A stretch of DNA of 64,000 nt, from assembly GCF_054482525.1 (NCBI RefSeq), contig NZ_CM137006.1, one strand, 5' to 3'. Both the position numbers and the translations under genes were made by a program. Shown piece after piece: positions 2,410 to 48,779 of this stretch. The notes below the pieces were generated by a model. That model was not told the DNA's origin. It worked only from the letters and a program-made list of their open reading frames with translations, and searched no databases. Positions within the stretch are counted from its first letter, which is position 1. Every line of letters starts with the position of its first letter.

Positions 2410-2736
2410 ATGAGTAAGAAACTGATTGCCTTATGTGCCTGCCCAATGGGCCTGGCTCACACCTTTATGGCCGCTCAGGCGCTGGAAGAAGCGGCGGTAG
2501 AAGCAGGCTATGAAGTAAAAATTGAAACCCAGGGTGCGGACGGTATCCAGAACCGTCTGACGGCGCAGGATATCGCCGAAGCAACCATCATCATCCACTC
2601 CGTGGCAGTTACCCCGGAAGATAACGAACGTTTCGAATCACGCGACGTTTATGAAATCACTTTGCAGGACGCAATTAAAAACGCTGCGGGCATCATCAAA
2701 GAAATCGAAGAGATGATTGCCTCTGAACAACAGTAA
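2410..2736 (+). CDS. fryB: PTS fructose-like EIIB component
   Basis: 108 aa from the second of two adjacent ATGs (MSKKLIALCACPMGLAHTFMAAQ...), active-site Cys in a PTS IIB-like context; track ORF 2359-2736 extends upstream. Confidence 0.85.
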   Translation: MSKKLIALCACPMGLAHTFMAAQALEEAAVEAGYEVKIETQGADGIQNRLTAQDIAEATIIIHSVAVTPEDNERFESRDVYEITLQDAIKNAAGIIKEIEEMIASEQQ

Positions 2737-2757
2737 TATTCGACAGGGATAATTGTT

Positions 2758-4005
2758 ATGGCCATTAAAAAACGCAGTGCAACCGTTGTGCCTGGCGCAT
2801 CCGGTGCGGCAGCGGCAGTTAAGAATCCGCAGGCCTCTAAAAGCAGCTTCTGGGGTGAACTCCCGCAGCATGTGATGTCAGGGATTTCACGCATGGTGCC
2901 GACCTTAATTATGGGCGGTGTGATCCTCGCTTTCAGCCAGCTGATTGCTTATAGCTGGCTTAAAATTCCTGCTGATATCGGCATCATGGATGCTCTTAAT
3001 AGCGGGAAATTCTCCGGTTTCGACCTCTCCTTACTGAAATTTGCCTGGCTGTCGCAATCCTTCGGCGGCGTGTTGTTTGGTTTCGCCATTCCGATGTTTG
3101 CTGCATTTGTGGCGAACTCTATCGGTGGCAAACTGGCGTTCCCGGCTGGTTTTATCGGCGGCTTGATGTCTACCCAGCCGACGCAACTGCTGAACTTCGA
3201 TTCCAGCACGATGCAATGGGCGACCTCTTCGCCGGTGCCGTCCACCTTCATTGGTGCGCTGATTATTTCTATCGTTGCCGGTTACCTTGTGAAGTGGATG
3301 AACCAGAAAATCCAGTTACCGGATTTCCTGTTAGCGTTCAAAACCACATTTTTGCTACCGATTCTTTCCGCCATATTTGTCATGCTGGCGATGTACTACG
3401 TCATCACCCCGTTTGGTGGCTGGATCAACGGCGGTATCCGTACCGTGCTGACTGCCGCAGGTGAGAAGGGCGCGCTGATGTACGCGATGGGGATCGCCGC
3501 GGCGACAGCAATCGACCTTGGTGGCCCAATCAACAAAGCAGCTGGTTTCGTTGCCTTCAGCTTTACCACGGACCACGTATTACCGGTCACCGCACGTTCC
3601 ATCGCTATTGTTATTCCGCCGATTGGTCTGGGTCTGGCGACCATTATTGACCGTCGTTTAACCGGCAAACGCCTGTTCAACGCTCAGCTTTATCCGCAGG
3701 GTAAAACCGCCATGTTCCTGGCCTTTATGGGGATCAGTGAAGGTGCGATTCCGTTTGCACTGGAAAGCCCCATCACCGCCATTCCGTCCTATATGGTCGG
3801 CGCGATTGTCGGCTCAACCGCTGCAGTCTGGCTGGGCGCAGTGCAATGGTTCCCGGAATCCGCTATCTGGGCATGGCCACTGGTCACTAACCTGGGCGTC
3901 TATATGGCGGGGATCGCGCTGGGAGCAGTCATTACTGCGCTGATGGTGGTGTTCCTGCGTCTGATGATGTTCCGCAAAGGCAAATTGTTAATCGATAGCC
4001 TGTAA
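2758..4005 (+). CDS. fryC: PTS fructose-like EIIC permease
   Basis: 415 aa polytopic membrane protein, IIC-like. Confidence 0.9.
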
Positions 4006-13615: not shown

Positions 13616-13645
13616 AAACAGGAGCCTGATGGCTCCTGTTTTTCA
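13616..13645. terminator. Bidirectional rho-independent terminator (alaC / ypdK)
   Basis: aaacaggagcc-tgat-ggctcctgttttt perfect hairpin flanked by A-tract and T-tract. Confidence 0.75.
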
Positions 13646-14087: not shown

Positions 14088-15008
14088 TTAAATGTATAGC
14101 GACGATTCTCCCACCGGGCGCGTTTTAAAGCGACGGTGGATCCAGAGGTACTGCTCCGGTGCGCGCATGATCTCTTTTTCGATAATCTTGTTCATATAGG
14201 CAGCGGCTTGATTTTCATCTGCCGGGTAGCCTTCCATCTCTGGGGTGATGTACAAACGATATCCGCTGTAATCCGCTTTTCTTACCATCGTTACGGTTAA
14301 CATGGCTGCGCCAGAGAGACGTGAAAGGACATACGTACCATTGGTTGTGGCGACATTTTCCACCGCAAAGAACGGCGCGAAGGAGCTGCCTTTACGACCA
14401 TAATCCTGATCGGGAGCAAACCATACCGCTTCACCTTTCTTCAGTGCACCAACAATGCCGCGCAGATTATTTCTGCCGATCATCGCTTTGTTAGAGCGCA
14501 TGCGCCCACGGGTCTGCACCCATTCCATCAGCTGATTATTATGTGGACGATAGGTAGCCATCATTGGTTGACACAGTCCCATCACGCGGCCGCCCAGTTC
14601 CAGCGACATAAAATGGACGCCGACAACCATTACGCCGCGATTTTGCATTTGTGCGCGTTTAAGGTTATCCAACCCTTCAACATCAAACCATTTACGTACG
14701 CGACTGTCGGGCCAGAACCACGCCATGCCGGTTTCTACCAGCGCCATGCCGAGTGAACGAAAGTTTTCGGCAATCATCTTCTCGCGTTCTTCCGCAGAAT
14801 GCTGTGGGAAACAAAGTTCCAGGTTTTTACGGGCGATAGATTCACGCCGTTTCAGGAATGGTCGCGCCATTGCGCCAATACGCGTGCCGAGAAAGCAGAG
14901 AACAGGATAAGGAAGCTGTACCCAAAGCCAGAGTACACCAAGCCCAAACCATGTGAGCCAGTAGCGAGGATGTAGAAACTCGCGGGAAAATTTGCATTGT
15001 GGAAACAT
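14088..15008 (-). CDS. lpxP: Lipid A palmitoleoyltransferase (cold-induced late acyltransferase)
   Basis: LpxL/LpxM family; likely start MFPQCKFSREF... (306 aa), track ORF extends 22 codons upstream. Confidence 0.9.
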   Translation of the reverse strand: MFPQCKFSREFLHPRYWLTWFGLGVLWLWVQLPYPVLCFLGTRIGAMARPFLKRRESIARKNLELCFPQHSAEEREKMIAENFRSLGMALVETGMAWFWPDSRVRKWFDVEGLDNLKRAQMQNRGVMVVGVHFMSLELGGRVMGLCQPMMATYRPHNNQLMEWVQTRGRMRSNKAMIGRNNLRGIVGALKKGEAVWFAPDQDYGRKGSSFAPFFAVENVATTNGTYVLSRLSGAAMLTVTMVRKADYSGYRLYITPEMEGYPADENQAAAYMNKIIEKEIMRAPEQYLWIHRRFKTRPVGESSLYI

Positions 15009-15360
15009 AGTTACCTTCTGTAGATACGAATTGTTGTATCGCAGAAGATTCCATGTCGACAGCGGTACACTCAATTGGTTGGGCCATCATGTACGACAAT
15101 GGTTCCTGTAAAGAGTGTAAAGACTAGTCAGGACATAACCACGAGGAGCATGAATGCGGTGGCTCTACTTTATCACTGGCTGACTGCTTTCAGCTACTGA
15201 TTATTAATCGTGCAAAGTAAAAAATTTTCCGCACGCAATAGCGTTGCATTTAACGTGCTGTTTTCATTGATGCTTAGCAAAAATTGCCAGAGGTTAAGGA
15301 TTGTCTTACTATTAAAGTGACTGAAGTTACAGGTTTTTTAGCGCGGCAGGAGGTTGAGCT

Positions 15361-15603
15361 ATGATTTATTTATGGATGTTTCTCGCCCTGTGTATTGTCT
15401 GCGTAAGCGGATACATCGGTCAGGTACTGAACGTGATCTCGGCGGTCTCTTCTTTCTTCGGCATGGTGATCCTCGCTGCACTCATTTACTACTTCACCAT
15501 GTGGTTAACTGGCGGTAATGAACTGGTGACGGGGATATTTATGTTTCTTGCCCCGGCTTGTGGCTTGATGATTCGCTTTATGGTGGGGTATGGCAGGCGG
15601 TAG
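15361..15603 (+). CDS. yfdY: DUF2545 small inner-membrane protein
   Basis: 80 aa, two hydrophobic helices. Confidence 0.8.
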   Translation: MIYLWMFLALCIVCVSGYIGQVLNVISAVSSFFGMVILAALIYYFTMWLTGGNELVTGIFMFLAPACGLMIRFMVGYGRR

Positions 15604-15679
15604 TAGTTCAGGATGGATCATTTGGGCAGGTGCTCACATCAGCATCAGGAATGATTGTTCACCTGCCATGTGACAGACG

Positions 15680-15955
15680 CTATCGCACAGGATGAATAAG
15701 ATAATTCGCCTTTGTCGGAAAAGGGGGCTTAATGTCTTCTGTGAGATTTAATGGTGGCGCATCTTCTCTCATCTTAAACAAAATCGCCTGTGATGGCTGA
15801 AGTTTTGTAGAATGAGTTGTCGTCATCATTGACGTTTTTTCTGTCTCTTTATAGCTCGTCTCACTTCCACCACCAGAAATGGAAAATGCAAAAACATTGC
15901 ATGCCATAATAGAGACCAATAAAAATAAGCTAAAAAGCATTAAGTTTACTTTCAT
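15680..15955 (-). CDS. ypdI: Small putative lipoprotein
   Basis: 91 aa; signal peptide with lipobox-like IMAC. Confidence 0.75.
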   Translation of the reverse strand: MKVNLMLFSLFLLVSIMACNVFAFSISGGGSETSYKETEKTSMMTTTHSTKLQPSQAILFKMREDAPPLNLTEDIKPPFPTKANYLIHPVR

Positions 15956-16097
15956 AGAAAGTTATCCTGAAAATGGTTCACTGAGAACCTACGATGTTAT
16001 GGCTGTATTTACATTTAATTAATCAGTATTTACATCGATATAATAAATGACATCTCTTTGTGGTATATAAGAATAGTTCTCTGTGACAGGAAGCATA

Positions 16098-16115
16098 TTC
16101 CTACAATTGTAAGAC
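16098..16115. promoter_or_regulatory. EvgA-box-like 18-bp inverted repeat upstream of yfdX
   Basis: TTCCTACA-AT-TGTAAGAC; a second weaker copy at 16136-16153 (TAACTACA-AC-TGTAAGAT). Confidence 0.5.
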
Positions 16116-16250
16116 TAAAATACTTCTTGCGATAATAACTACAACTGTAAGATAACCCTTTCAAAATGAGCGTTGCTCTCTGATTTCTCATTTCATGCTC
16201 ACCCAATATGATGGCGGCGTTTTCTAAAACTGTTAAAGAATGAGGTAAGT

Positions 16251-16883
16251 ATGAAACGTTTAATTATGGCTACGATGGTCACAGCAGTTCTGGCATCTTC
16301 AACTGTATGGGCTGCTGATAATGCACCGGTAGCGGCACAACAGCAAACTCAGCAAGTTCAGCAAACCCAGAAAACGGCAGCAGCAGAGCGTATCTCTGAA
16401 CAAGGTTTATATGCGATGCGTGACGTGCAGGTAGCGCGCCTGGCTCTGTTTCATGGCGATCCGGAAAAGGCAAAAGAACTGACCAATGAAGCTTCAGCTT
16501 TGTTGTCAGATGACAGTACCGAATGGGCAAAGTTCGCTAAGCCAGGTAAAAAGACCAATGTCAATGATGACCAATATATTGTCATTAATGCATCTGTCGG
16601 AATTTCTGAGAGTTATGTAGCGACACCCGAAAAAGAAGCCGCGATAAAAATTGCCAACGAAAAAATGGCGAAAGGGGATAAAAAGGGCGCAATGGAAGAG
16701 CTGCGCCTGGCCGGTGTTGGCGTAATGGAAAACCAATATCTGATGCCGCTCAAACAGACTCGTAATGCACTTGCTGATGCGCAGAAACTGCTTGATAAAA
16801 AGCAATACTACGAGGCAAACCTGGCGCTTAAAGGTGCGGAAGATGGAATCATCGTCGATAGCGAAGCTCTGTTTGTGAACTAA
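16251..16883 (+). CDS. yfdX: YfdX periplasmic protein (EvgA-induced)
   Basis: 210 aa with signal peptide. Confidence 0.9.
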
Positions 16884-16939
16884 CGCTGACAGGCAGTATA
16901 TTGAGGTAAAGGATTTAACTCCCTCCAGCCGACAATTTT

Positions 16940-16972
16940 TTATGACCACAATACGACAGGTTGTGGTCATAA
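16940..16972 (+). terminator. Inverted repeat after yfdX (possible terminator)
   Basis: ttatgaccacaa / ttgtggtcataa 12-bp perfect arms; tail only weakly T-rich. Confidence 0.35.
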
Positions 16973-17126
16973 AATTATTTGGCGCTCGCGGTTCTATAAA
17001 CTCGCATTTTATCTTCCTCAAAGTAAACCGCAATAATCCCGTGTCATCACAAATCATTTATTATGTTATGTTTTATGGTACGCTTTAAAAGGCGTAATCA
17101 TACCCTTACTTGTAAATCACCGGCGC

Positions 17127-17144
17127 TTCTTACAGTTGTAAGAA
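17127..17144. promoter_or_regulatory. Perfect EvgA-box palindrome upstream of frc
   Basis: TTCTTACA-GT-TGTAAGAA, a perfect 18-bp inverted repeat about 250 bp upstream of the frc start. Confidence 0.6.
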
Positions 17145-17395
17145 TAACATCACAAATGTCGCGGCTCTCTCTGATTACCGCGAACCAATATTTATCATAT
17201 TCTTCTTTTCGTCCTCACTACTTACCATGCAGAAAGGAATTGGAAGTGGCGATGAAATGATTTTCAGCACTTGATACAGGAATTTAAAAATATCGAGTGC
17301 AGCTACGACGATATTTTGCGGATTATTTATAGAGGGCGTTATGCCTTAAATAAACGCTAAATTAACATATATTTAATTAACTAATAGGTATTGCT

Positions 17396-18646
17396 ATGTC
17401 AACTCCACTTCAAGGAATTAAAGTTCTCGATTTCACCGGTGTGCAATCTGGCCCATCTTGTACTCAAATGCTGGCCTGGTTTGGCGCTGACGTCATTAAA
17501 ATTGAACGTCCCGGCGTTGGTGACGTAACGCGTCACCAGCTGCGAGATATTCCTGATATCGATGCGCTTTACTTCACCATGCTTAACAGTAACAAACGTT
17601 CTATTGAATTAAATACCAAAACAGCGGAAGGCAAAGAGGTAATGGAAAAGCTGATCCGCGAAGCTGATATCTTAGTCGAGAACTTTCATCCTGGGGCCAT
17701 TGATCACATGGGCTTCACCTGGGAGCATATTCAAGAAATCAATCCACGTCTGATTTTTGGTTCGATCAAAGGGTTTGATGAGTGTTCGCCTTATGTGAAT
17801 GTAAAAGCCTATGAAAACGTTGCTCAGGCAGCGGGTGGCGCGGCATCCACTACGGGTTTTTGGGACGGTCCGCCGCTGGTAAGCGCTGCAGCGTTGGGTG
17901 ACAGCAACACCGGAATGCATTTACTGATCGGTTTACTTGCTGCTTTGCTGCATCGCGAAAAAACGGGGCGTGGGCAACGAGTCACCATGTCAATGCAGGA
18001 TGCCGTATTGAACCTTTGCCGCGTGAAATTACGCGACCAGCAGCGTCTCGATAAATTGGGTTATCTGGAAGAATACCCGCAGTATCCGAATGGCACATTT
18101 GGTGATGCAGTTCCCCGCGGAGGTAATGCGGGGGGTGGCGGTCAGCCTGGCTGGATCCTGAAATGTAAAGGCTGGGAAACCGATCCTAACGCCTATATTT
18201 ATTTCACTATTCAGGAGCAAAACTGGGAAAACACCTGTAAAGCCATCGGCAAACCAGATTGGATTACCGATCCGGCATACAGTACAGCCCATGCCCGACA
18301 GCCACATATTTTCGATATTTTTGCTGAAATCGAAAAATACACTGTCACTATTGATAAACATGAAGCGGTGGCCTATTTGACTCAGTTTGATATTCCTTGT
18401 GCACCGGTTTTAAGTATGAAAGAAATTTCACTTGATCCCTCTTTGCGCCAAAGTGGCAGTGTTGTTGAAGTGGAACAACCGTTGCGTGGAAAATATCTGA
18501 CAGTTGGTTGTCCAATGAAATTCTCTGCCTTTACGCCGGATATTAAAGCTGCGCCGCTATTAGGTGAACATACCGCTGCTGTATTGCAGGAGCTGGGTTA
18601 TAGCGACGATGAAATTGCTGCAATGAAGCAAAACCACGCCATCTGA
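17396..18646 (+). CDS. frc: Formyl-CoA:oxalate CoA-transferase
   Basis: 416 aa, family III CoA-transferase. Confidence 0.93.
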
Positions 18647-18699
18647 TATTAACGGGGGCTTCTGGCTCCCAATTTATAAAAATTTCGAGGTTATTAATC

Positions 18700-20394
18700 A
18701 TGTCAGATCAACTTCAAATGACAGATGGTATGCATATCATCGTTGAAGCATTAAAACAGAATAATATTGACACTATTTATGGTGTTGTAGGTATTCCTGT
18801 GACGGATATGGCACGCCATGCCCAGGCGGAAGGCATTCGTTATATTGGTTTTCGTCATGAGCAGTCGGCAGGCTATGCCGCTGCGGCAAGCGGTTTTCTT
18901 ACCCAAAAACCAGGGATCTGCCTGACAGTGTCTGCGCCAGGATTCCTCAATGGTTTGACCGCATTGGCCAACGCAACGGTAAATGGTTTTCCGATGATCA
19001 TGATTAGCGGCTCCAGCGACCGCGCGATCGTCGACCTACAGCAAGGTGATTATGAAGAGCTGGACCAAATGAATGCGGCAAAACCGTATGCCAAAGCAGC
19101 ATTCCGCGTTAATCAGCCGCAGGATCTTGGCATTGCATTGGCACGCGCTATCCGGGTCTCAGTATCGGGTCGCCCTGGCGGAGTTTATCTTGATTTACCA
19201 GCAAATGTCTTGGCCGCGACGATGGAAAAAGACGAAGCGTTAACCACGATTGTAAAAGTTGAAAATCCGTCGCCAGCATTATTGCCATGCCCGAAGTCAG
19301 TCACTAGCGCAATTTCGCTTTTAGCAAAAGCTGAACGTCCATTAGTTATCCTTGGCAAAGGTGCGGCGTATTCACAAGCTGATGAACAGCTTCGTGAATT
19401 TATTGAAAGTGCCCAGATTCCATTCCTGCCAATGTCTATGGCGAAAGGGATCCTGGAAGATACGCATCCACTTTCTGCGGCAGCTGCGCGTTCGTTTGCC
19501 CTGGCAAATGCTGACGTTGTCATGCTTGTTGGTGCACGACTGAATTGGTTACTGGCGCACGGTAAAAAAGGATGGGCGGCAGATACACAGTTTATTCAAC
19601 TGGATATTGAACCGCAGGAAATTGACAGCAACCGCCCCATTGCTGTGCCAGTCGTTGGCGATATTGCATCCAGTATGCAAGGTATGCTGGCAGAACTGAA
19701 ACAAAACACATTTACGACTCCACTGGTATGGCGCGATATTTTAAATATCCACAAGCAGCAAAATGCACAAAAAATGCATGAAAAATTAAGTACAGATACT
19801 CAACCATTAAATTACTTTAATGCATTAAGTGCTGTGCGCGATGTATTGCGCGAGAACCAGGATATTTATTTAGTTAATGAAGGTGCAAATACCCTGGATA
19901 ATGCACGAAATATTATTGATATGTATAAACCACGTCGCCGTCTGGATTGTGGTACCTGGGGTGTCATGGGCATCGGTATGGGCTATGCCATCGGTGCTAG
20001 CGTGACCTCTGGTTCTCCGGTTGTCGCCATTGAAGGTGATAGTGCTTTTGGTTTCAGTGGGATGGAGATTGAAACGATTTGTCGATATAACCTGCCGGTG
20101 ACGATCGTTATTTTTAATAATGGCGGCATTTACAGAGGAGACGGTGTTGATCTCAGTGGCGCTGGTGCACCATCACCAACGGATCTGCTGCACCATGCAA
20201 GGTATGACAAATTAATGGATGCGTTTCGTGGCGTTGGCTATAACGTCACTACGACAGATGAACTTCGTCATGCTTTAACCACCGGTATTCAGTCGCGCAA
20301 ACCGACCATTATTAATGTGGTCATCGACCCTGCAGCAGGAACTGAAAGTGGCCATATTACCAAACTTAACCCAAAACAAGTCGCTGGTAATTAA
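18700..20394 (+). CDS. oxc: Oxalyl-CoA decarboxylase (ThDP-dependent)
   Basis: 564 aa; ThDP-binding motif region GDSAFGFSGME...NNGG. Confidence 0.93.
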   Translation: MSDQLQMTDGMHIIVEALKQNNIDTIYGVVGIPVTDMARHAQAEGIRYIGFRHEQSAGYAAAASGFLTQKPGICLTVSAPGFLNGLTALANATVNGFPMIMISGSSDRAIVDLQQGDYEELDQMNAAKPYAKAAFRVNQPQDLGIALARAIRVSVSGRPGGVYLDLPANVLAATMEKDEALTTIVKVENPSPALLPCPKSVTSAISLLAKAERPLVILGKGAAYSQADEQLREFIESAQIPFLPMSMAKGILEDTHPLSAAAARSFALANADVVMLVGARLNWLLAHGKKGWAADTQFIQLDIEPQEIDSNRPIAVPVVGDIASSMQGMLAELKQNTFTTPLVWRDILNIHKQQNAQKMHEKLSTDTQPLNYFNALSAVRDVLRENQDIYLVNEGANTLDNARNIIDMYKPRRRLDCGTWGVMGIGMGYAIGASVTSGSPVVAIEGDSAFGFSGMEIETICRYNLPVTIVIFNNGGIYRGDGVDLSGAGAPSPTDLLHHARYDKLMDAFRGVGYNVTTTDELRHALTTGIQSRKPTIINVVIDPAAGTESGHITKLNPKQVAGN

Positions 20395-20463
20395 ATACTG
20401 ACATCGTCTCCTCTTGCCAACTCATTATGCGATGGTGAGGGGACCCTTATCGGAAATACTATT

Positions 20464-21408
20464 ATGCTAACATTTTTTATTGGCGATTTATTGCCTATTA
20501 TCGTAATCATGCTGTTGGGTTATTTTAGCGGCAGACGAGAAACTTTTTCAGAAGATCAAGCCCGGGCATTTAATAAACTGGTATTAAACTACGCTCTTCC
20601 TGCGGCTCTATTTGTATCTATTACCCGGGCAAACAGGGAAATGATTTTTGCGGACACTCGTCTGACCCTTGTATCACTTGTGGTTATTGTCGGATGTTTC
20701 TTTTTCTCCTGGTTCGGTTGCTACAAATTTTTTAAACGTACTCATGCAGAAGCAGCAGTATGTGCATTAATTGCAGGTTCACCTACCATTGGATTCCTGG
20801 GATTTGCAGTTCTCGATCCTATTTATGGTGATTCCGTATCAACAGGTTTAGTGGTAGCAATTATTTCAATTATCGTTAACGCAATTACTATTCCTATTGG
20901 TCTGTATTTGCTGAATCCCTCCTCAGGAGCGGATGGTAAGAAGAATAGTAATCTGAGCGCATTAATTTCTGCGGCAAAGGAGCCAGTAGTATGGGCACCT
21001 GTTCTGGCAACGATCCTGGTGTTGGTTGGGGTAAAAATTCCGGCAGCATGGGACCCAACCTTTAATCTGATTGCGAAGGCTAACTCAGGGGTGGCGGTAT
21101 TCGCTGCGGGGTTGACTCTGGCTGCACATAAATTCGAGTTCAGTGCCGAAATTGCTTATAACACCTTCCTGAAGCTGATTCTGATGCCACTGGCGCTGCT
21201 TCTCGTGGGTATGGCATGTCATTTGAACAGCGAACATCTGCAGATGATGGTACTGGCAGGCGCATTACCGCCGGCATTCTCCGGAATCATTATTGCCAGT
21301 CGGTTTAATGTCTACACCCGCACTGGTACAGCGTCATTGGCTGTGAGCGTACTGGGTTTTGTCGTCACGGCTCCCTTGTGGATTTATGTCAGTCGACTGG
21401 TTTCATAA
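20464..21408 (+). CDS. yfdV: AEC-family (auxin efflux carrier-like) transporter
   Basis: 314 aa polytopic membrane protein. Confidence 0.88.
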
Positions 21409-21436
21409 TTAATCATGTTATTGATTTTACATAAAT

Positions 21437-21467
21437 GCCGAAGTGTCTTTTCACCTTCGGCTTTTTT
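21437..21467 (+). terminator. Hairpin plus T-tract between yfdV and yfdE
   Basis: gccgaagtg / caccttcggc stem followed by tttttt, 15 bp before the yfdE ATG. Confidence 0.5.
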
Positions 21468-21481
21468 CAAGGCATAAGCAA

Positions 21482-22627
21482 ATGACAAATAATGAAAGCA
21501 AAGGGCCGTTTGAAGGCTTATTAGTTATCGATATGACACACGTCCTTAATGGACCTTTCGGAACTCAACTTCTTTGTAATATGGGCGCAAGGGTAATTAA
21601 AGTTGAGCCGCCGGGTCATGGTGATGATACCCGCACATTTGGTCCCTATGTGGATGGACAGTCACTCTATTACAGTTTTATTAATCATGGCAAAGAGAGT
21701 GTGGTTCTTGATTTAAAGAATGATCACGATAAAAGTATATTTATAAATATGCTTAAACAAGCTGATGTATTAGCTGAGAATTTTCGCCCAGGTACAATGG
21801 AAAAACTGGGGTTTTCATGGGAAACGCTACAAGAAATCAACCCGCGCCTCATCTATGCTTCATCGTCAGGTTTCGGACATACCGGCCCGCTAAAAGATGC
21901 TCCTGCCTACGATACCATCATTCAGGCAATGAGCGGGATAATGATGGAAACAGGGTACCCTGATGCTCCGCCAGTGCGTGTTGGTACCTCTCTTGCGGAT
22001 CTATGCGGCGGTGTCTATTTATTCAGTGGAATAGTGAGTGCACTTTATGGCCGCGAAAAGAGCCAGAGAGGGGCGCATGTCGATATAGCGATGTTTGATG
22101 CCACGCTGAGTTTTCTGGAGCATGGTCTGATGGCATATATTGCGACAGGGAAGTCACCACAACGCCTGGGAAATCGCCATCCCTACATGGCACCTTTTGA
22201 TGTTTTTGATACTCAGGATAAGCCGATTACTATTTGTTGTGGTAATGACAAGCTTTTTTCTGCGTTATGCCAGGCACTGGAGCTTACGGAACTGGTTAAT
22301 GATCCCCGATTTAGCAGCAATATTTTACGCGTACAAAACCAGGCTATTCTTAAACAATATATTGAGCGAACGTTAAAAACGCAGGCAGCTGAAGTTTGGT
22401 TAGCCAAAATACATGAAGTTGGTGTGCCCGTCGCGCCGTTATTAAGTGTGGCTGAGGCCATTAATTTGCCACAAACTCAGGCGAGAAATATGTTGATTGA
22501 AGCCGGGGGAATAATGATGCCAGGTAATCCGATAAAAATCAGCGGCTGGGCGGACCCGCATGTTATGCCGGGAGCGGCAACGCTCGACCAGCATGGGGAA
22601 CAAATTCGCCAGGAATTCTCATCGTAA
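21482..22627 (+). CDS. yfdE: Family III CoA-transferase (acetyl-CoA:oxalate CoA-transferase)
   Basis: Paralogous to Frc; likely start MTNNESKGPFEGL (381 aa), track ORF starts upstream at 21443. Confidence 0.88.
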   Translation: MTNNESKGPFEGLLVIDMTHVLNGPFGTQLLCNMGARVIKVEPPGHGDDTRTFGPYVDGQSLYYSFINHGKESVVLDLKNDHDKSIFINMLKQADVLAENFRPGTMEKLGFSWETLQEINPRLIYASSSGFGHTGPLKDAPAYDTIIQAMSGIMMETGYPDAPPVRVGTSLADLCGGVYLFSGIVSALYGREKSQRGAHVDIAMFDATLSFLEHGLMAYIATGKSPQRLGNRHPYMAPFDVFDTQDKPITICCGNDKLFSALCQALELTELVNDPRFSSNILRVQNQAILKQYIERTLKTQAAEVWLAKIHEVGVPVAPLLSVAEAINLPQTQARNMLIEAGGIMMPGNPIKISGWADPHVMPGAATLDQHGEQIRQEFSS

Positions 22628-22649
22628 ATTAAGATGTGCTGGTAAATAG

Positions 22650-22674
22650 CTCCCACATTTGAACATTGTGGGAG
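22650..22674. terminator. Hairpin between convergent yfdE and evgS
   Basis: ctcccaca / tgtgggag 8-bp stem with 9-nt loop. Confidence 0.45.
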
Positions 22675-22681
22675 CCGCAAT

Positions 22682-25600
22682 TTAGTCATTTTGTTGACAG
22701 AAAACAGCAATCTCCTGGTCCAGCTCTGCAATGTGTTCTTTAACAGAGTTCAGCAACTTAAGAATTTCAGGCTTACTGTCATCTGAAACAGGTGTTATTT
22801 CTAACTGATGGCTAATATTAATCAACTTTTGCAAATTCAGGATGTTAGCCGCACCGTGGATGCGATGAATACACTGATGGAAAATTCTGTTGTCGCCAGC
22901 TTCTAGTGCATGAAACGCAGCGGGTAGATCTTTATGCGTTTCATGCTGGAAAGTCATGAGAATCTCCTGCATCAGTTGTAGATCGTTCGCCGTATTATTT
23001 TTCAGGGCCTCGATATCAAGGTGGCGATACTGAGGTGCAATAGGCGCAACCTGGTGTAACTGACTTAAATGTGTTTTCAGTACATCCAGGGTCAACGGTT
23101 TGAACAAACATAAGTTCATGCCGCAATTTAACCCTTTTTCACGTTCGTTAGCCTGTGCGTTGGCTGTAAGCCCCCAGATGGGTAAGGAAGAATTTTGCTC
23201 ACGGAGTTTGCGAGTCAACTCAAAACCATCCATATTCGGCATATTAACGTCAGTAATAAGCAGATCATAATGTTGCATACTGACTTTGTGTAGCGCTTGC
23301 ACACCATCAGTGGCTTCATCAACATCATATCCTAATAGATTTAGCTGGCGTTTGAGTAATAGCCTGTTGGTCGGATGATCATCCGCGATTAATATGCTCA
23401 ACTTTTCAGGTAGTGTGATGGGTTGTTCTGCTTTTGCCTCGACAGCCGCCACTTGTTGGGTAATTTCTACCGGGATTGTGATCGTAAATGTTGTTCCTAT
23501 GCCTGGATGACTTTCTAATGACAAATCACCCTGCATGTTTTTAATTAATTCTTTGCAGATCATTAAGCCTAAACCAGAACCTGTTTGCTGACGACCTGCA
23601 CTTGTTTGGCTATAGCGTTTAAACAGTTGTTGTTGTTCTTCCTGTGATAATCCACTTCCAGAATCCATAATCGTCATTTTGATTACAGCGTGGTTGTCAT
23701 CAATGTTAACCAGGGAGGTCGTAATTTTTACTGCCCCCTCGGTGGTAAATTTGAGAGCATTGCTCAGTAAATTAGATAAGACCTGCTTAAACGCCTGAGG
23801 GTCGATCTTAACCAGGTAATGTTCAGGAAACGTACTGCTGCAACTTAATGCGATCGATTTGCTTGCAGCAATCGCACCGAAAGAGTGACAAGTGTTCTGG
23901 ACTAAAGTAGGGATATCGACCCATTGTGGTTGAAGTTGATAGTTACCCGATTCAATTTTGTCGACATCAAGGATTTCACCAATTAAGCCGAGGAGTGATT
24001 GTCCGGTGGCGTAGGCAAGTGAAATCGCCTCCACCCGTTGCTCCTTGCTAAGACCAGAACCCGACAGAAGTTCCAGGAAGCCCATAATGGAGCTTATTGG
24101 TGTTCTTATTTCGTGACTCATTGTTGCCAGAAACTGGCTTTTTGCGACAGTTGCATTGATCGCTTTATTTCTCTCTACTTCGAGTGCATGAATTAAATCA
24201 CGCGTCTCGGTAATATCTTGCCAACCACAAATATAAACAGCATGATCGCTGGCTGGCAGATTGCATAATGTATGCCAGTGATTAATGCATCTTTTCTCGA
24301 TGCCATTATCAATTTCAAATACCTGTGTGTATATTGTTCGATTTTCTTTCGTTTCTGCTGTGACTTCATGCGCATTAGAAAAAACATCTTTAAAGGGTGA
24401 GTCACTGTTTTCTAATGGTAACATTGCATTTTTGTAGTAATCCGCAGTGAAATAATGTTCAAAAGCACTATTATGACTAATGACATTACCTTGCCAGTTT
24501 ACAACATAAGTTGGATTCGGTAAGGAATCCGAGAGTGCTTTTCGGAATGATATTTGGTTTTCTAAATCACCCTGAATGACTTTACGACGACGAACTGAGC
24601 GTAACAGGTAGAATCCCCATAAAAGGCTACTGCCAACTAATAAAACGGATAATGTCGTGACAATATAAAATTGCTCGCTATAGAGGTCCCATGTGTCAAT
24701 GGTCACATTGGGCATTTTAATCCATTTTTCCGTCAGGCGCAGAACTTCGCTTGGGGGAATTGCATTCAGTACTTTATTAATAATATCCTTAAGTTCCGGT
24801 TCTCCGCGAGGAAAAGCGAACGAAAGCGATGCATTCGGAACGCCGGGAATAAGAAAATGATAAAGTTCATTAGGATAGTAATGGTCGATCATGTAACGTG
24901 AATTTAACTGTGTCGCGACCAGAGCATCAAGTTCGCCTTCCTTGACCTTGTGAAATGCAGCGCTGGCGTTATCGACTTTTATCCACTCTACCTCCGGATA
25001 CATCTCTTTTAATTGCGAATGAAGCTCATAATAATAGGGAATGGCAACTTTCATTCCTTTTTTTAATGTTTGTTCACTGTCAGGCGCTTTTTGCATGACA
25101 AAAACGTAAGGCGTTGTTATGAAGGCTTCAGCAAATAAAACATTATTTTCTCTATCTTCACTATAAATAGCGGCGGGCAATATATCCCATCCACCGGGGT
25201 TAAGCTGTGTCCCCGCATGAATATTGTGTGAAACGGTGATCGGAGAAAAATTTAAACCTGTTTGCAAGGTAATAATATTAAGAATATCACCCATCACGCC
25301 CCGAACTGAGCCAGTTTCATCTGTCATAGAATAGGGTGGCGAGTAAGGATTTTCCAGCACCTTTAAATCGGGATGCTGCTTAATCCACTGTTTTTCATGT
25401 TCAGTGAGTTCTAATGGTTTGTTCAGAAAGGCCAGGTTTCCTGTATCAAGCCAATTTTGTGATACTTCATAGCGAACTTCATTTGTTAAAGCATCAACAA
25501 ACCGATTGAGTACTTCATTAAGAACGACTGAATCTTTTCTGGTTAAGAAAAAGTTATATTGACGCGGCGAGTTATAATATTTCACTACATTTAAGGAGTG

Positions 25601-26275
25601 AGTGAAATAGCGGGAAATCATACTGCTGGTAATAATGTTACTACCAATAAAGTAATCATTCTGTCCGGCTGAGACGGATGCTAATGCCTGATATAAATTT
25701 GTAAAAGAGATAATTGTTGCTTTTGGAAATGATTGATGAATTACCTCGTCAGGGGGATAATTTGCTACTCGAGCAATATTTACTGGTTTTGATGAGGTAA
25801 GCGGTCGCATTGAATCGTGAAGGGTGGTGACGAGCGCCGGAAAGGTAATTATCAGTGGTTTGGTTGCAGCAATGTCATCATTAAGAGGCGGCGAAGCAAC
25901 TAAATGTGATAACACTATATCGACTTCACCTTCTTCCAGCGCGTCCATTGCTTTTTGATGATCGGCGTATTCCCGGAGTGTTAATTTGATATTTAACGCT
26001 CTTTTTAACAGATTTAAATAATCAGCATTAATACCACGAACCCGTTGCTGCGAATCGGTATGCAACAACGTAGCCGTTTGGGACTTGTGTACTGCAATCA
26101 CAAGATTTTTCTTGCTCGCTAACCAACGTAATTCCTTGTTGCTCAGACGTAGTGGATCAAGTGTGACACGGTTGTTACTACTGATGCCACGATATTCGAT
26201 GTAATCTTCGTCTGCGAAACTTATGGTCGACCAAAGACCACAACAGAGAAGAAAAATATAGGGTAAAAACTTCAT
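22682..26275 (-). CDS. evgS: Hybrid sensor histidine kinase EvgS
   Basis: 1197 aa; tandem periplasmic solute-binding domains, TM, HisKA/HATPase, receiver and HPt domains. Confidence 0.96.
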   Translation of the reverse strand: MKFLPYIFLLCCGLWSTISFADEDYIEYRGISSNNRVTLDPLRLSNKELRWLASKKNLVIAVHKSQTATLLHTDSQQRVRGINADYLNLLKRALNIKLTLREYADHQKAMDALEEGEVDIVLSHLVASPPLNDDIAATKPLIITFPALVTTLHDSMRPLTSSKPVNIARVANYPPDEVIHQSFPKATIISFTNLYQALASVSAGQNDYFIGSNIITSSMISRYFTHSLNVVKYYNSPRQYNFFLTRKDSVVLNEVLNRFVDALTNEVRYEVSQNWLDTGNLAFLNKPLELTEHEKQWIKQHPDLKVLENPYSPPYSMTDETGSVRGVMGDILNIITLQTGLNFSPITVSHNIHAGTQLNPGGWDILPAAIYSEDRENNVLFAEAFITTPYVFVMQKAPDSEQTLKKGMKVAIPYYYELHSQLKEMYPEVEWIKVDNASAAFHKVKEGELDALVATQLNSRYMIDHYYPNELYHFLIPGVPNASLSFAFPRGEPELKDIINKVLNAIPPSEVLRLTEKWIKMPNVTIDTWDLYSEQFYIVTTLSVLLVGSSLLWGFYLLRSVRRRKVIQGDLENQISFRKALSDSLPNPTYVVNWQGNVISHNSAFEHYFTADYYKNAMLPLENSDSPFKDVFSNAHEVTAETKENRTIYTQVFEIDNGIEKRCINHWHTLCNLPASDHAVYICGWQDITETRDLIHALEVERNKAINATVAKSQFLATMSHEIRTPISSIMGFLELLSGSGLSKEQRVEAISLAYATGQSLLGLIGEILDVDKIESGNYQLQPQWVDIPTLVQNTCHSFGAIAASKSIALSCSSTFPEHYLVKIDPQAFKQVLSNLLSNALKFTTEGAVKITTSLVNIDDNHAVIKMTIMDSGSGLSQEEQQQLFKRYSQTSAGRQQTGSGLGLMICKELIKNMQGDLSLESHPGIGTTFTITIPVEITQQVAAVEAKAEQPITLPEKLSILIADDHPTNRLLLKRQLNLLGYDVDEATDGVQALHKVSMQHYDLLITDVNMPNMDGFELTRKLREQNSSLPIWGLTANAQANEREKGLNCGMNLCLFKPLTLDVLKTHLSQLHQVAPIAPQYRHLDIEALKNNTANDLQLMQEILMTFQHETHKDLPAAFHALEAGDNRIFHQCIHRIHGAANILNLQKLINISHQLEITPVSDDSKPEILKLLNSVKEHIAELDQEIAVFCQQND

Positions 26276-31465: not shown

Positions 31466-31696
31466 TTAGATGATAAATGACAGCAGGAATGTGCCCGCCA
31501 GAGCGACGACTGAAGCGATAAATGTCGCTGTCGTATAGTATTTAAATGTTTCATTGAGCGTAGCGCCGCAATATTGCTTCGCCAGCCAGAAAAGCGAGTC
31601 CGTAACGATCGTGCAGCCAATTGCACCTGAACCGATAGCAATCGTAAAAATTTCCGGGCTGATGTCGGGATACAGCGCCAGCACAATGATCCATAT
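31466..31696 (-). pseudogene. dsdX: 3' remnant of dsdX (GntP-family D-serine permease), truncated at the csc island junction
   Basis: Only about 75 C-terminal codons of a permease-like frame remain, ending 18 bp before dsdA; the frame hits a stop upstream at about 31697, and no dsdC follows. Confidence 0.7.
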
Positions 31697-31926
31697 TTAT
31701 ATTTTCTTCTCCAGATTGGCGATGCCAGTTGGCATGTTTTACCTACTTGCCTACATGGTTACTCGTTGGCGAGAACAGAGGCGGAATTGGGTACAATTGT
31801 CCGGGAATTATTGTTATTTTTTATTGTATTGCCGTGTCGGGTTATAGGGCGTTGAGAATATCGTTGGATCTCGCCAGTGACGTCTGTTTCTGCTACAGTG
31901 CCCGTTTTACGGCAAACGGCTTGGGT

Positions 31927-32922
31927 ATGGCTTCATTAAAGGATGTCGCACGCCTGGCGGGAGTGTCGATGATGACAGTCTCCCGGGTGATGCATAATGC
32001 AGAATCTGTGCGTCCTGCAACGCGTGACCGCGTATTGCAGGCAATCCAGACCCTGAATTATGTTCCTGATCTTTCCGCCCGTAAGATGCGCGCTCAAGGA
32101 CGTAAGCCGTCGACTCTCGCCGTGCTGGCGCAGGACACTGCTACCACTCCTTTCTCTGTTGATATTCTGCTTGCCATTGAGCAAACCGCCAGCGAGTTCG
32201 GCTGGAATAGTTTTTTAATCAATATTTTTTCTGAAGATGACGCTGTCCGCGCGGCACGTCAGCTGCTTGCCCACCGTCCGGATGGCATTATCTATACTAC
32301 AATGGGGCTGCGACATATCACGCTGCCTGAGTCTCTGTATGGTGAAAATATTGTATTGGCGAACTGTGTGGCGGATGACCCAGCGTTACCCAGTTATATC
32401 CCTGATGATTACACTGCACAATATGAATCAACACAGCATTTGCTCGCGGCGGGCTATCGTCAACCGTTATGCTTCTGGCTACCGGAAAGTGCGTTGGCAA
32501 CAGGGTATCGTCGGCAGGGATTTGAGCAGGCCTGGCGTGATGCTGGACGAGATCTGGCTGAGGTGAAACAATTTCACATGGCAACAGGTGATGATCACTA
32601 CACCGATCTCGCAAGTTTACTCAATGACCACTTCAAATCTGGCAAACCAGATTTTGATGTTCTGATATGTGGTAACGATCGCGCAGCCTTTGTCGCTTAT
32701 CAGGTTCTCCTGGCGAAGGGGGTACGTATCCCGCAGGATGTCGCCGTAATGGGCTTTGATAATCTGGTTGGCGTCGGGCATCTGTTTTTACCGCCGCTGA
32801 CCACAATTCAGCTTCCACATGACATTATCGGGCGGGAAGCTGCATTGCATATTATTGAAGGTCGTGAAGGGGGAAGAGTGACGCGGATCCCTTGCCCGCT
32901 GTTGATCCGTTGTTCCACCTGA
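31927..32922 (+). CDS. cscR: LacI-family sucrose repressor
   Basis: 331 aa from MASLKDVARLAGVSMMTVSRV (HTH); track ORF extends 66 codons upstream. Confidence 0.9.
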   Translation: MASLKDVARLAGVSMMTVSRVMHNAESVRPATRDRVLQAIQTLNYVPDLSARKMRAQGRKPSTLAVLAQDTATTPFSVDILLAIEQTASEFGWNSFLINIFSEDDAVRAARQLLAHRPDGIIYTTMGLRHITLPESLYGENIVLANCVADDPALPSYIPDDYTAQYESTQHLLAAGYRQPLCFWLPESALATGYRRQGFEQAWRDAGRDLAEVKQFHMATGDDHYTDLASLLNDHFKSGKPDFDVLICGNDRAAFVAYQVLLAKGVRIPQDVAVMGFDNLVGVGHLFLPPLTTIQLPHDIIGREAALHIIEGREGGRVTRIPCPLLIRCST

Positions 32923-32929
32923 TATTATG

Positions 32930-43339: not shown

Positions 43340-44650
43340 ATGGGTCAGGTTTTACCGCTGGTTACCCGCCAGGGCGATCGTATCGCCATTGTTAGCGGTT
43401 TACGTACGCCTTTTGCCCGCCAGGCGACGGCTTTTCATGGCATTCCCGCGGTTGATTTAGGGAAGATGGTGGTAGGCGAACTGCTGGCACGCAGCGAAAT
43501 TCCCGCCGAAGTGATTGAACAACTGGTTTTTGGTCAGGTCGTACAAATGCCGGAAGCCCCCAACATTGCGCGTGAAATTGTTCTCGGTACTGGAATGAAT
43601 GTGCATACCGATGCTTACAGCGTCAGCCGCGCTTGCGCTACCAGTTTCCAGGCGGTTGCAAACGTCGCAGAAAGCCTGATGGCGGGAACTATTCGCGCGG
43701 GGATTGCCGGTGGGGCAGATTCCTCTTCCGTATTGCCAATTGGCGTCAGTAAAAAACTGGCGCGCGTGCTGGTTGATGTCAACAAAGCCCGCACAATGAG
43801 CCAGCGCCTGAAACTCTTCTCTCGCCTGCGTTTGCGCGACTTAATGCCCGTACCACCTGCGGTAGCAGAATATTCTACCGGCTTGCGGATGGGCGACACC
43901 GCAGAGCAAATGGCGAAAACCTACGGCATCACCCGAGAACAGCAAGATGCATTAGCGCACCGTTCGCATCAGCGAGCCGCTCAGGCGTGGTCAGACGGTA
44001 AACTCAAAGAAGAGGTGATGACTGCCTTTATCCCTCCTTATAAACAACCGCTTGTCGAAGACAACAATATTCGCGGTAATTCCTCGCTTGCCGATTACGC
44101 AAAGCTGCGCCCGGCGTTTGATCGCAAACACGGAACGGTAACGGCGGCAAACAGTACGCCGCTGACCGATGGCGCGGCAGCGGTGATCCTGATGACTGAA
44201 TCCCGGGCGAAAGAATTAGGGCTGGTGCCGCTGGGGTATCTGCGCAGCTACGCATTTACTGCGATTGATGTCTGGCAGGACATGTTGCTCGGTCCAGCCT
44301 GGTCAACACCGCTGGCGCTGGAGCGTGCCGGTTTGACGATGAGCGATCTGACATTGATCGATATGCACGAAGCCTTTGCAGCTCAGACGCTGGCGAATAT
44401 TCAGTTGCTGGGTAGTGAACGTTTTGCTCGTGATGTACTGGGGCGTGCACATGCCACTGGCGAAGTGGACGATAGCAAATTTAACGTGCTTGGCGGTTCG
44501 ATTGCTTACGGGCATCCCTTCGCGGCGACCGGCGCACGGATGATTACCCAGACATTGCATGAACTTCGCCGTCGCGGCGGTGGATTTGGTTTAGTGACCG
44601 CCTGTGCTGCCGGTGGGCTTGGCGCGGCAATGGTTGTGGAGGCGGAATAA
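43340..44650 (+). CDS. fadI: 3-ketoacyl-CoA thiolase (anaerobic beta-oxidation)
   Basis: 436 aa thiolase. Confidence 0.95.
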
Positions 44651-46794
44651 TGGAAATGGCATCAGCGTTTACCCTTAATGTCCGTCTGGACAACATTGCT
44701 GTTATCACCATCGACGTACCGGGTGAGAAAATGAATACCCTGAAGGCGGAGTTTGCCTCGCAGGTGCGCGCCATTATTAAGCAACTCCGTGAAAACAAAG
44801 AGTTGCGCGGCGTGGTGTTTATCTCCGCGAAACCAGACAACTTCATTGCTGGCGCAGACATCAACATGATCGCCAACTGCAAAACGGCACAAGAAGCGGA
44901 AGCACTGGCGCGGCAGGGTCAACAGTTAATGGCGGAGATTCATGCTTTGCCCGTTCCGGTTATCGCGGCTATTCATGGCGCTTGCCTGGGCGGTGGGCTG
45001 GAGTTGGCGCTGGCGTGCCACGGTCGCATGTGTACTGACGATCCTAAAACGGTGCTCGGTTTGCCTGAAGTACAACTTGGATTATTACCCGGTTCAGGCG
45101 GCACCCAGCGTTTACCGCGCCTGATAGGTGTCAGCACAGCATTAGAGATGATCCTCACCGGAAAACAACTTCGGGCGAAACAGGCATTAAAGCTGGGGCT
45201 GGTGGATGACGTTGTTCCGCAATCCATTTTACTGGAAGCCGCTGTTGAGCTGGCAAAGCAGGATCGTCCATCTTCACGCCCTCTACCTGTACGCGAGCGT
45301 ATTCTGGCGGGGCCGTTAGGTCGTGCGCTGCTGTTCAAAATGGTCGGCAAGAAAACAGAACACAAAACTCAGGGTAACTATCCGGCGACAGAACGCATCC
45401 TGGAGGTTGTCGAAACGGGATTAGCGCAGGGCACCAGTAGCGGCTATGACGCTGAAGCCCGTGCTTTTGGCGAACTGGCGATGACGCCGCAATCGCAGGC
45501 TTTGCGTAGTATCTTTTTTGCCAGTACGGAAGTGAAGAAAGATCCTGGCAGTGACGCGCCGCCTGCGCCATTAAACAGCGTGGGAATTTTAGGTGGTGGC
45601 TTGATGGGCGGCGGTATTGCTTACGTCACTGCTTGTAAAGCGGGGCTTCCGGTCAGAATTAAAGATATCAACCCGCAGGGCATAAATCATGCGCTGAAGT
45701 ACAGTTGGGATCAGCTGGAGGGCAAAGTTCGCCGTCGTCATCTCAAAGCCAGCGAACGTGACAGACAGCTGGCATTAATCTCCGGAACGACGGACTATCG
45801 CGGCTTTGCCCATCGCGATCTGATTATTGAAGCGGTGTTTGAAAATCTCGAATTAAAACAACAAATGGTAGCGGAAGTTGAGCAAAATTGCGCCGCTCAT
45901 ACCATCTTTGCTTCGAATACGTCATCTTTACCGATTGGTGATATCGCCGCTCACGCTACGCGACCTGAGCAAGTTATTGGCCTGCATTTCTTCAGTCCGG
46001 TGGAAAAAATGCCGCTGGTGGAGATTATTCCTCATGCGGGGACATCGGCGCAAACCATCGCTACCACAGTAAAACTGGCGAAGAAACAGGGTAAAACGCC
46101 AATTGTCGTGCGTGACAAAGCCGGGTTTTACGTCAATCGCATTTTAGCGCCTTACATTAATGAAGCTATCCGCATGTTGACCGAAGGTGAACGGGTAGAG
46201 CACATTGATGCCGCGCTGGTGAAATTTGGTTTTCCGGTAGGCCCAATCCAACTTTTGGATGAGGTAGGAATCGACACCGGGACTAAAATTATTCCTGTAC
46301 TGGAAGCCGCTTATGGAGAACGTTTTAGCGCGCCTGCAAATGTTGTTTCTTCAATTTTGAACGACGATCGCAAAGGCAGAAAAAATGGCCGGGGTTTCTA
46401 TCTTTATGGTCAGAAAGGGCGTAAAAGCAAAAAACAGGTCGATCCCGCCATTTACCCGCTCATTGGCGCACAAGGGCAGGGGCGACTCTCCGCACCGCAG
46501 GTAGCTGAACGGTGTGTGATGTTGATGCTGAATGAAGCAGTACGTTGTCTGGACGAGCAGGTTATCCGTAGCGTGCGTGACGGAGATATTGGCGCGGTAT
46601 TTGGCATTGGTTTTCCGCCATTTCTCGGTGGTCCGTTCCGCTACATCGATTCTCTCGGTGCGGGTGAAGTGGTTGCAATAATGCAACGACTGGCCACGCA
46701 GTATGGTTCCCGTTTTACCCCTTGCGAGCGTTTAGTCGAGATGAGCAAGCGTGGGGAAAGTTTTTGGAAAACAACTGCAACTGACCTGCAATAA
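44650..46794 (+). CDS. fadJ: Fatty-acid oxidation complex alpha subunit (enoyl-CoA hydratase / 3-hydroxyacyl-CoA dehydrogenase)
   Basis: 714 aa; crotonase fold then NAD-binding dehydrogenase domain; start overlaps fadI stop. Confidence 0.95.
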
Positions 46795-48708: not shown

Positions 48709-48779
48709 TGTATTTCCCCCATAGCTGCAAAGTTATGGGGTTTATAACTACCAAATAACTAAATTATAAAAAATCATGG

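Follow-up and report, generated by a model that had tools for sequence, protein, structure and literature searches.

Operons with known internal terminators

Partial intrinsic terminators inside operons share a simple layout, in which a GC-rich hairpin followed by a U-tract lies between co-directional genes of one transcription unit and the distal gene, which has no promoter of its own, is expressed by read-through. Textbook cases include the rpsU-dnaG terminator T1, the rplL-rpoB attenuator, and, in operons of the pap/fim type, the hairpin that follows the major pilin gene. Other intercistronic structures protect the mRNA, such as the repetitive extragenic palindrome (REP) between malE and malF and the Rhodobacter puf hairpins. 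Here we describe a hairpin followed by a U6 tract in the gap between yfdV and yfdE, the last two genes of the order frc-oxc-yfdV-yfdE, in a stretch of 64,000 nucleotides of contig NZ_CM137006.1 (RefSeq assembly GCF_054482525.1), which as a whole is referred to as the window. The element is an undocumented instance of a well-known kind, namely an internal leaky terminator or an intercistronic hairpin, and on balance it probably acts constitutively but incompletely, as a leaky Rho-independent terminator at the 3' end of yfdV. The arrangement of yfdE matches that of the distal gene in the textbook systems. In contrast to them, the yfdV-yfdE hairpin is weaker, with a bulge and a 6-nt loop, and its termination is a prediction, and the frc operon carries two further intercistronic hairpins without U-tracts. 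Operons with internal terminators comprise roughly 8% of all E. coli genes, according to the figure quoted in a paper citing the estimate.

The locus is the known yfdXWUVE or frc-oxc-yfdVE acid- and oxalate-response operon of the EvgA regulon. EvgA binds inverted repeats, and yfdX and yfdWUVE are induced (PMC3720670). The same publication covers the function of YfdE as an acetyl-CoA:oxalate CoA-transferase, proposes it as an accessory 'priming' enzyme of the oxalyl-CoA cycle, and states, citing Masuda & Church, that yfdE is co-expressed with the operon under EvgA. The genes, their order, the convergent evgS, and the EvgA-box-like repeats are all present in the window. The published accounts consulted treat the five genes as one co-expressed operon, whereas an internal hairpin or terminator is reported here; none within frc-oxc-yfdV-yfdE is mentioned in the literature searched, and EcoCyc or RegulonDB may list a predicted one.

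The hairpin and U-tract upstream of yfdE

The 73-nt gap between the yfdV stop codon and the yfdE start codon has the composition UUAAUCAUGUUAUUGAUUUUACAUAAAU-GCCGAAGUG-UCUUUU-CACCUUCGGC-UUUUUU-CAAGGCAUAAGCAA-AUG and is made up of the following parts:

21409-21436, + strand: AU-rich 28-nt spacer, from the yfdV stop to the hairpin
21437-21461, + strand: terminator-like stem-loop GCCGAAGUG-UCUUUU-CACCUUCGGC, 9 bp with one bulged C and a 6-nt loop
21462-21467, + strand: U6 tract, immediately 3' of the stem
21469-21472, + strand: probable yfdE Shine-Dalgarno sequence AAGG, 9 nt before the ATG and 1 nt past the U-tract

The stem-loop has a predicted folding free energy (dG) of -11.2 kcal/mol, with five G-C pairs in its lower 7-bp stem, and 14 nt separate the end of the U-tract from the yfdE ATG (21482). 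A first-pass annotation of the window had placed a GC-rich hairpin plus T6 at 21437-21467, and the element lies exactly there on the sense strand; the distance to yfdE, given as 15 bp in that annotation, was right within 1 nt. The stem starts 28 nt past the yfdV stop codon, which should clear the footprint of a terminating ribosome. An 8-bp AU helix, AUUUAUGU / ACAUAAAU (21382-21436), is predicted to bracket the yfdV stop and to abut the terminator stem. This helix was also found in the divergent Escherichia lineage L012, and ribosomes translating yfdV would melt it. An N-terminally extended YfdE starting from the GTG at 21443 was considered and rejected because this codon lies within the stem, no Shine-Dalgarno sequence was seen for it, and the RefSeq start is at 21482; the GTG appears in the list of open reading frames as a mechanical start only.

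Terminator-like sites were scored on both strands of the window (128 kb) with our own scan of the d'Aubenton-Carafa type. Ranking by raw dG was uninformative, as long loose folds dominated, and the score was changed to combine hairpin dG per length with a weighted U-tract. The yfdV-yfdE site obtained a score of d = +3.2 and ranked 12th across both strands. Twelve sites in the window scored d >= +3.2, compared with 1.9 +/- 1.3 in dinucleotide shuffles, and the chance expectation of such a site in a 73-nt gap on one strand is about 0.001. Nine of the 11 other sites at or above this score are situated at annotated gene 3' ends, those of alaC, lpxP, mlaA, yfcZ, sixA, and fabB together with bidirectional partners, with hairpin dG values from -9.1 to -20.8. 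The other two are weak antisense hairpins (-4.7 and -6.1 kcal/mol) and probable false positives. A consensus terminator scan, which required a gapless stem and a loop of at most 8 nt, did not return the yfdV-yfdE site; we attribute this to the bulge, which breaks the perfect stem, the gapless 7-bp stem leaving an 11-nt loop. The observation is real and beyond chance.

That the element is a chance resemblance, a non-functional structure with no expression effect, seems very improbable. The marginal d-score would allow it, as would the two probable false positives among the 12 sites scoring this high, but the expectation for this gap and strand (~1e-3) is low, and the dG resembles those of true terminators rather than those of the false ones. 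Further points against a chance origin, detailed below, are the compensatory changes in lineage L004, the near-invariance in more than 5000 genomes with the only sampled variant in the loop, and the presence of a hairpin before yfdE in 12 of 13 lineages.

The transcription unit and its probable promoter

The unit and its neighbours are composed of the following genes, the outer two taken from the RefSeq annotation:

16251-16883: yfdX
17396-18646, + strand: frc (yfdW), formyl-CoA:oxalate CoA-transferase (NCBIfam NF003809, 798 bits; TIGR03253, 784 bits)
18700-20394, + strand: oxc (yfdU), thiamine diphosphate-dependent oxalyl-CoA decarboxylase (NCBIfam NF006721, 1067 bits)
20464-21408, + strand: yfdV, transporter of the auxin-efflux-carrier family (NCBIfam NF007384, 714 bits)
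21482-22627, + strand: yfdE, acetyl-CoA:oxalate CoA-transferase (NCBIfam NF008511, CoA:oxalate CoA-transferase, 881 bits)
22682-26275: evgS, convergent with yfdE and followed by evgA

The gene content and order frc-oxc-yfdV-yfdE, as read in the first-pass annotation, were confirmed by the RefSeq annotation of PCN033 and MG1655 and by NCBIfam equivalog matches, which for Frc, Oxc, YfdV, and YfdE were all far over the cut-offs. YfdE also matches its own crystal structure, 4hl6, with E = 2e-259. The 2.3 kb around the yfdV-yfdE junction match the PCN033 chromosome of E. coli over their length at 100% identity, the junction shows 100% identity to K-12, and at least 80% of the 2.3-kb region is present in 5398 of 5426 complete E. 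coli genomes.

When the window was searched for TTCYTACA-N2-TGTARGAA, which we take to be the EvgA-box consensus, with 0-2 mismatches allowed, three repeats were found against 0.07 expected:

16098-16115: EvgA-box-like repeat upstream of yfdX, at most 2 mismatches
17127-17144, + strand: EvgA-box-like inverted repeat TTCTTACAgtTGTAAGAA, about 250 nt upstream of frc, an exact match to TTCYTACANNTGTARGAA
27119-27136: EvgA-box-like repeat in the evgA/emrK divergent gap, at most 2 mismatches

Judging by its sequence and place, the repeat at 17127-17144 probably marks an EvgA-dependent promoter of the frc-oxc-yfdV-yfdE unit. Between yfdX and frc, a perfect 15-bp AT-rich hairpin, UUUUAUGACCACAAU...GUUGUGGUCAUAAAA, is located at 16938-16974, 55 nt past the yfdX stop, and is bordered on either side by A/T runs; it may act as a bidirectional terminator between yfdX and the frc unit.

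Expression of yfdE by read-through

The only promoter-like match in the yfdV-yfdE gap, at 21464-21493, was rejected as a yfdE promoter, its -10 hexamer being downstream of the ATG. There is no workable promoter between the U-tract and the ATG, and yfdE therefore depends on read-through; since yfdE is reported to be co-expressed with the operon, termination would have to be incomplete. In the mechanism that we propose, RNA polymerase would start at the EvgA-dependent promoter upstream of frc and transcribe frc, oxc, and yfdV, after which a fraction of the complexes would be released at the GC-rich hairpin plus U6. The released product would be a frc-oxc-yfdV mRNA with its 3' end capped by the hairpin, and the yfdE ribosome-binding site, starting 1 nt past the U-tract, would be present on read-through transcripts only. 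YfdE would then accompany Frc, Oxc, and YfdV under the same conditions, though at a lower level, which would fit its proposed accessory role in priming the oxalyl-CoA cycle. What the sequences show is the anatomy, its improbability by chance, its conservation, and the lack of both a usable promoter past the element and an antiterminator; actual termination, its efficiency, and this dosage rationale are inferred.

A regulated attenuator is a different proposal, in which a ligand, a protein, or translation would switch termination and yfdE would be expressed only under a signal such as oxalate. What speaks for it is the position of a terminator directly before a gene whose product is perhaps needed only for oxalyl-CoA priming, and we regard it as highly improbable. 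When the 3' arm was constrained to be single-stranded, the 5' arm found essentially no partner and 8-12 kcal/mol were lost; no antiterminator was obtained. No leader open reading frame was seen, and the yfdV stop, 28 nt upstream of the hairpin, is too far away for ribosome masking. The sequence upstream consists of only the 28-nt AU-rich spacer, poorly conserved beyond Escherichia and lineage L004, and positions 15000-23000 contain no Rfam match (E <= 1) except a spurious rRNA match. Regarding the first-pass proposal that yfdE is uncoupled from the upstream genes, its structural basis holds, the element is conserved, and a lowered dosage is plausible, while its option of regulated attenuation finds no support in these analyses.

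Conservation within E. coli

The 45-nt core (21430-21474) occurs unchanged in 5273 of 5405 E. coli records, and the flanking 2.3 kb show 95-99% identity to the window in all but three. The contrast between the invariance of the core and the divergence of the flanks is suggestive only, as most of the divergence may lie in yfdE. Among the E. coli variants sampled, the substitutions at 21411, 21473, 21487, and 21497 are all outside the element, and the sole variant within it is a T>C change at 21446, in the loop. Two enterotoxigenic strains carry insertion sequences in the gap. In ETEC1701 (L063, about 2588-3300), IS200C is inserted exactly between 21467 and 21468, past the sixth T, and in ETEC1738 (L067, about 1020-1790), IS1 is situated in the AU-rich spacer with the target duplication AATCATGTT, leaving the hairpin intact beside yfdE.

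As a GC-rich palindrome in an intercistronic gap that could stabilise the upstream mRNA, the element resembles REP sequences and bacterial interspersed mosaic elements (BIMEs). A REP/BIME repeat was ruled out on the grounds that the element is single-copy and not dispersed, with a median of 1 place per genome across 5404 genomes.

The strong conservation of the core in E. coli could also be read as that of a small RNA (sRNA) derived from the yfdV 3' untranslated region (3' UTR), which would end at the terminator, depend on EvgA, and act through Hfq or ProQ, with lower yfdE expression as a side effect. The 59-nt 3' UTR has the layout of Hfq-binding sRNAs, in which an AU-rich single-stranded part precedes a GC-rich stem and a run of six or more U, and the class of 3'-UTR-derived sRNAs is well established, GlnZ being an example. 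For this locus, however, the search gave no data on expression, Hfq binding, or targets, conservation of the spacer does not extend beyond Escherichia and L004, and neither a candidate seed nor an Rfam match was identified. We consider such an sRNA quite improbable.

Conservation in other lineages

The comparison set comprised 16 further lineages with YfdE identities of 63-96%. The divergent Escherichia lineage L012 keeps the stem core and has a T7 tract. In L004 (YfdE 89%), the arms are ACCGAAGUA/UACUUCGGU, followed by an A plus T8, and in two pairs of the stem both bases differ from those in E. coli, as compensatory changes from G-C to A-U. The spacer is partly conserved in these two lineages and poorly conserved beyond Escherichia and L004. 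L004 is the sequence NZ_CACVAF010000001.1, labelled Yersinia vastinensis, and its frc-oxc-yfdV-yfdE-evgS block shows 81-96% amino-acid identity to E. coli. Such similarity is much higher than would be expected of a Yersinia and points to horizontal transfer or else to an assembly that is mislabelled or contaminated.

In more distant lineages, the position directly in front of the yfdE ribosome-binding site is occupied by a different, non-alignable hairpin, and hairpins recur before yfdE in 12 of 13 lineages. The Klebsiella-type lineages L005, L065, and L066 have their own compensatory changes in the yfdV>yfdE helix and a layout like that of E. coli, composed of the hairpin, a short U-containing linker, AAGG, and ATG. 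L054 bears a non-homologous hairpin-plus-U before yfdE, GCCGCC...GGCGG followed by AUUUUU, and weaker non-homologous examples were found in L043 and in Herbaspirillum (L008), in the latter within the oxc>yfdE gap. In Providencia (L006, L007), where the gene order is oxc-yfdV-frc-yfdE, yfdE follows almost without a gap and no hairpin precedes it. Regarding gene order, oxc directly precedes yfdE, without yfdV, in Herbaspirillum and in metagenome-assembled genomes of Desulfovibrionaceae and Caulobacteraceae (L008, L013, L014).

The other junctions and the operon end

Hairpins were also found at the two remaining junctions of the unit and in the convergent gap that follows it:

18654-18670, + strand: frc-oxc intercistronic hairpin GGGGGCUUCUGGCUCCC, dG -9.8, no U-tract in E. 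coli
20406-20444, + strand: oxc-yfdV intercistronic hairpin GUCUCCUC...GAGGGGAC, dG -15.6, no U-tract
22649-22675: hairpin GCUCCCACA/UGUGGGAGC, 9 bp, in the 54-nt convergent yfdE-evgS gap, no U-tract on either strand

The first-pass annotation missed the conserved hairpins at frc>oxc and oxc>yfdV. These two gaps contain stable GC-rich hairpins in nearly every lineage examined, and over all three junctions such hairpins were found across 13 or more lineages. Each junction was evaluated per lineage by comparing the minimum free energy of the whole gap with that of dinucleotide shuffles. The mean z was -2.0 for frc>oxc (n = 11 lineages), -2.6 for oxc>yfdV (n = 13 lineages), and -3.0 for yfdV>yfdE (n = 13 lineages), and partial results from per-hairpin shuffles agree. 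The frc>oxc helix has a 6-bp consensus across 11 lineages with compensatory changes in three pairs. No RNAalifold consensus was obtained for oxc>yfdV, where the hairpins are unalignable by sequence between lineages; because the per-sequence folds are significant, we read this as turnover and not as absence.

Some lineages have a U-tract at a different junction. In L045 and L052, a U5 run comes after the frc>oxc hairpin, which scores as a strong terminator with d = 17.7 and 18.0, and their yfdV>yfdE hairpin has no U-tract; in L051, the U-tract is likewise at the frc>oxc hairpin. Thus, a U-tract follows the hairpin after frc in L045, L052, and L051 and the hairpin before yfdE in Escherichia, L004, and L054. 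As judged from these sequences, the position of the junction hairpins is conserved, their sequence is not, and the junction bearing the U-tract varies by lineage. Among the control gaps in the window, short, tight operon junctions were unstructured, as was one 71-nt co-directional gap; with 10 co-directional gaps, this control set is too small for a genome-wide judgement on the three structured junctions.

At the end of the operon, the yfdE-evgS gap contributed no terminator site to the best 30 of the scan, which reached down to d about -13. With its hairpin lacking a U-tract, the operon end is less terminator-like than the internal site. Adams et al. 2021 reported a bicyclomycin-sensitive, Rho-dependent site at MG1655 position 2488340 on the + strand, which lies downstream of evgS and inside yfdE, antisense to that gene.

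Termination or mRNA stability

Several observations weigh against the proposal that the yfdV-yfdE hairpin terminates transcription. The margin of its score over zero is small, and the bulge and the 6-nt loop should weaken termination. The hairpin before yfdE has no real U-tract in L041, L045, L047, L015, L051, L052, and L005/L065/L066, and across the lineages compared the broadly conserved feature is the hairpin, not termination. The comparable hairpins without U-tracts at frc>oxc and oxc>yfdV point to stability or processing.

In the ribosome profiling data of Schumacher et al. 2023 (PMC10746267), the log2 fold changes at pH 5.8 were 4.78 for frc, 4.40 for yfdV, and 4.28 for oxc, and the top-20 list given there includes yfdX, frc, yfdV, and oxc at 4.3-4.9 and does not include yfdE, the cut-off being 3.33. 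The absence of yfdE from this list is consistent with reduced distal expression, and a higher basal signal explains it equally. In two unrelated transcriptome studies (PMC8765455, PMC11728337), yfdE was differentially expressed without frc, oxc, or yfdV, which hints that its signal can vary independently of the upstream genes, whether through noise, antisense evgS read-through, or true uncoupling. No 3' end was found at MG1655 2,489,183-2,489,187 (-) in Adams 2021 or in the TERMITe Term-seq tables, where the operon was probably silent, making this result uninformative.

In a second explanation, the hairpin would be mainly an element of mRNA decay or processing with little termination, as one of three intercistronic stem-loops. 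Such hairpins would block 3'-to-5' exonucleases where the upstream cistron ends, or protect the downstream 5' end after an RNase E cut in the AU-rich spacer; the half-lives of the segments would set the Frc, Oxc, YfdV, and YfdE ratios, and the U6 of E. coli would be incidental or secondary. Much of the comparative evidence is in line with this, since all three junctions are more structured than shuffles in 11-13 lineages, hairpin positions are kept while sequences turn over, and compensatory changes are seen at frc>oxc as well as in the yfdV>yfdE helix of the Klebsiella type. Also in its favour are the missing U-tract after the yfdV>yfdE hairpin in most lineages, the AU-rich spacer just before the hairpin, and the lack of such structure in the short, tight junctions and the 71-nt co-directional gap of the window. 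On the other hand, U6-U8 follows the stem directly in Escherichia and L004; blocking an exonuclease would not need such a tract, whereas intrinsic termination has it as its hallmark. We regard this explanation as the main rival, possible if doubtful, and the two roles, termination and mRNA stability, can coexist.

Among the closest described counterparts are the differential-decay structures of Dar & Sorek 2018 (PMC5927463), which are documented to reshape E. coli operons and are likewise stable, evolutionarily kept stem-loops with an AU-rich neighbour, and which, according to that study, lie mostly inside coding regions, whereas the frc-operon hairpins are intergenic. Differential-decay systems produce uneven stoichiometry among operon genes, and the same outcome is predicted for the frc operon. 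The yfdV>yfdE element in E. coli has a canonical U-tract, unlike those protective structures, and the frc operon is absent from the supplementary lists of Dar & Sorek, probably because it was unexpressed, which also counts against a decay role.

A combined proposal, which we consider unlikely, would treat the three intercistronic hairpins together as evolvable 'valves' that fix the Frc:Oxc:YfdV:YfdE ratio, with lineages retuning it through gain or loss of a U-tract. The valve before yfdE might in addition yield an EvgA-induced 3'-UTR sRNA or limit polymerase traffic antisense into evgS, the latter being suggested because the operon end is without a canonical terminator.

Other features of the window

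An analogous site was noted in the fimbrial cluster of the window, where the hairpin CCCCAUAGCUGCAAAGUUAUGGGG plus UUUAU (48717-48740) is located in the 83-nt gap between a fimbrial subunit gene and the usher gene. The subunit gene before 48717 probably encodes the major subunit, in the classic pilus-operon arrangement. Hairpins scoring as terminators on both strands, with A- or U-tracts on either side, were found at 13619-13638, 39401-39420, and 63456-63473; they are situated after alaC (facing ypdK), after mlaA (facing a convergent hypothetical gene), and after fabB. Additionally, a sucrose (csc) cluster at about 31466-37328 is composed of genes encoding a LacI-family regulator, CscA, a sugar kinase, and an oligosaccharide transporter of the major facilitator superfamily, and adjoins a truncated dsdX pseudogene and a tRNA-Arg gene. 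Finally, fadJ (about 44650-46793) is annotated as frameshifted in the strain.

Meaning for the oxalate operon

Internal terminators and protective operon hairpins are well known, and the element opens no long-standing question and would not surprise specialists. The most interesting by-product is the set of three position-conserved, sequence-divergent hairpins with a shifting U-tract, a comparative pattern that offers a small, clean example of how polarity within an operon may be adjusted without a promoter change. If a sizeable fraction of transcripts terminates before yfdE, the 'yfdXWUVE operon' would be expressed non-uniformly, with YfdE at a set fraction of Frc, Oxc, and YfdV. This, if true, would be relevant to models of oxalate-dependent acid tolerance and to the stoichiometry inferred from operon membership.

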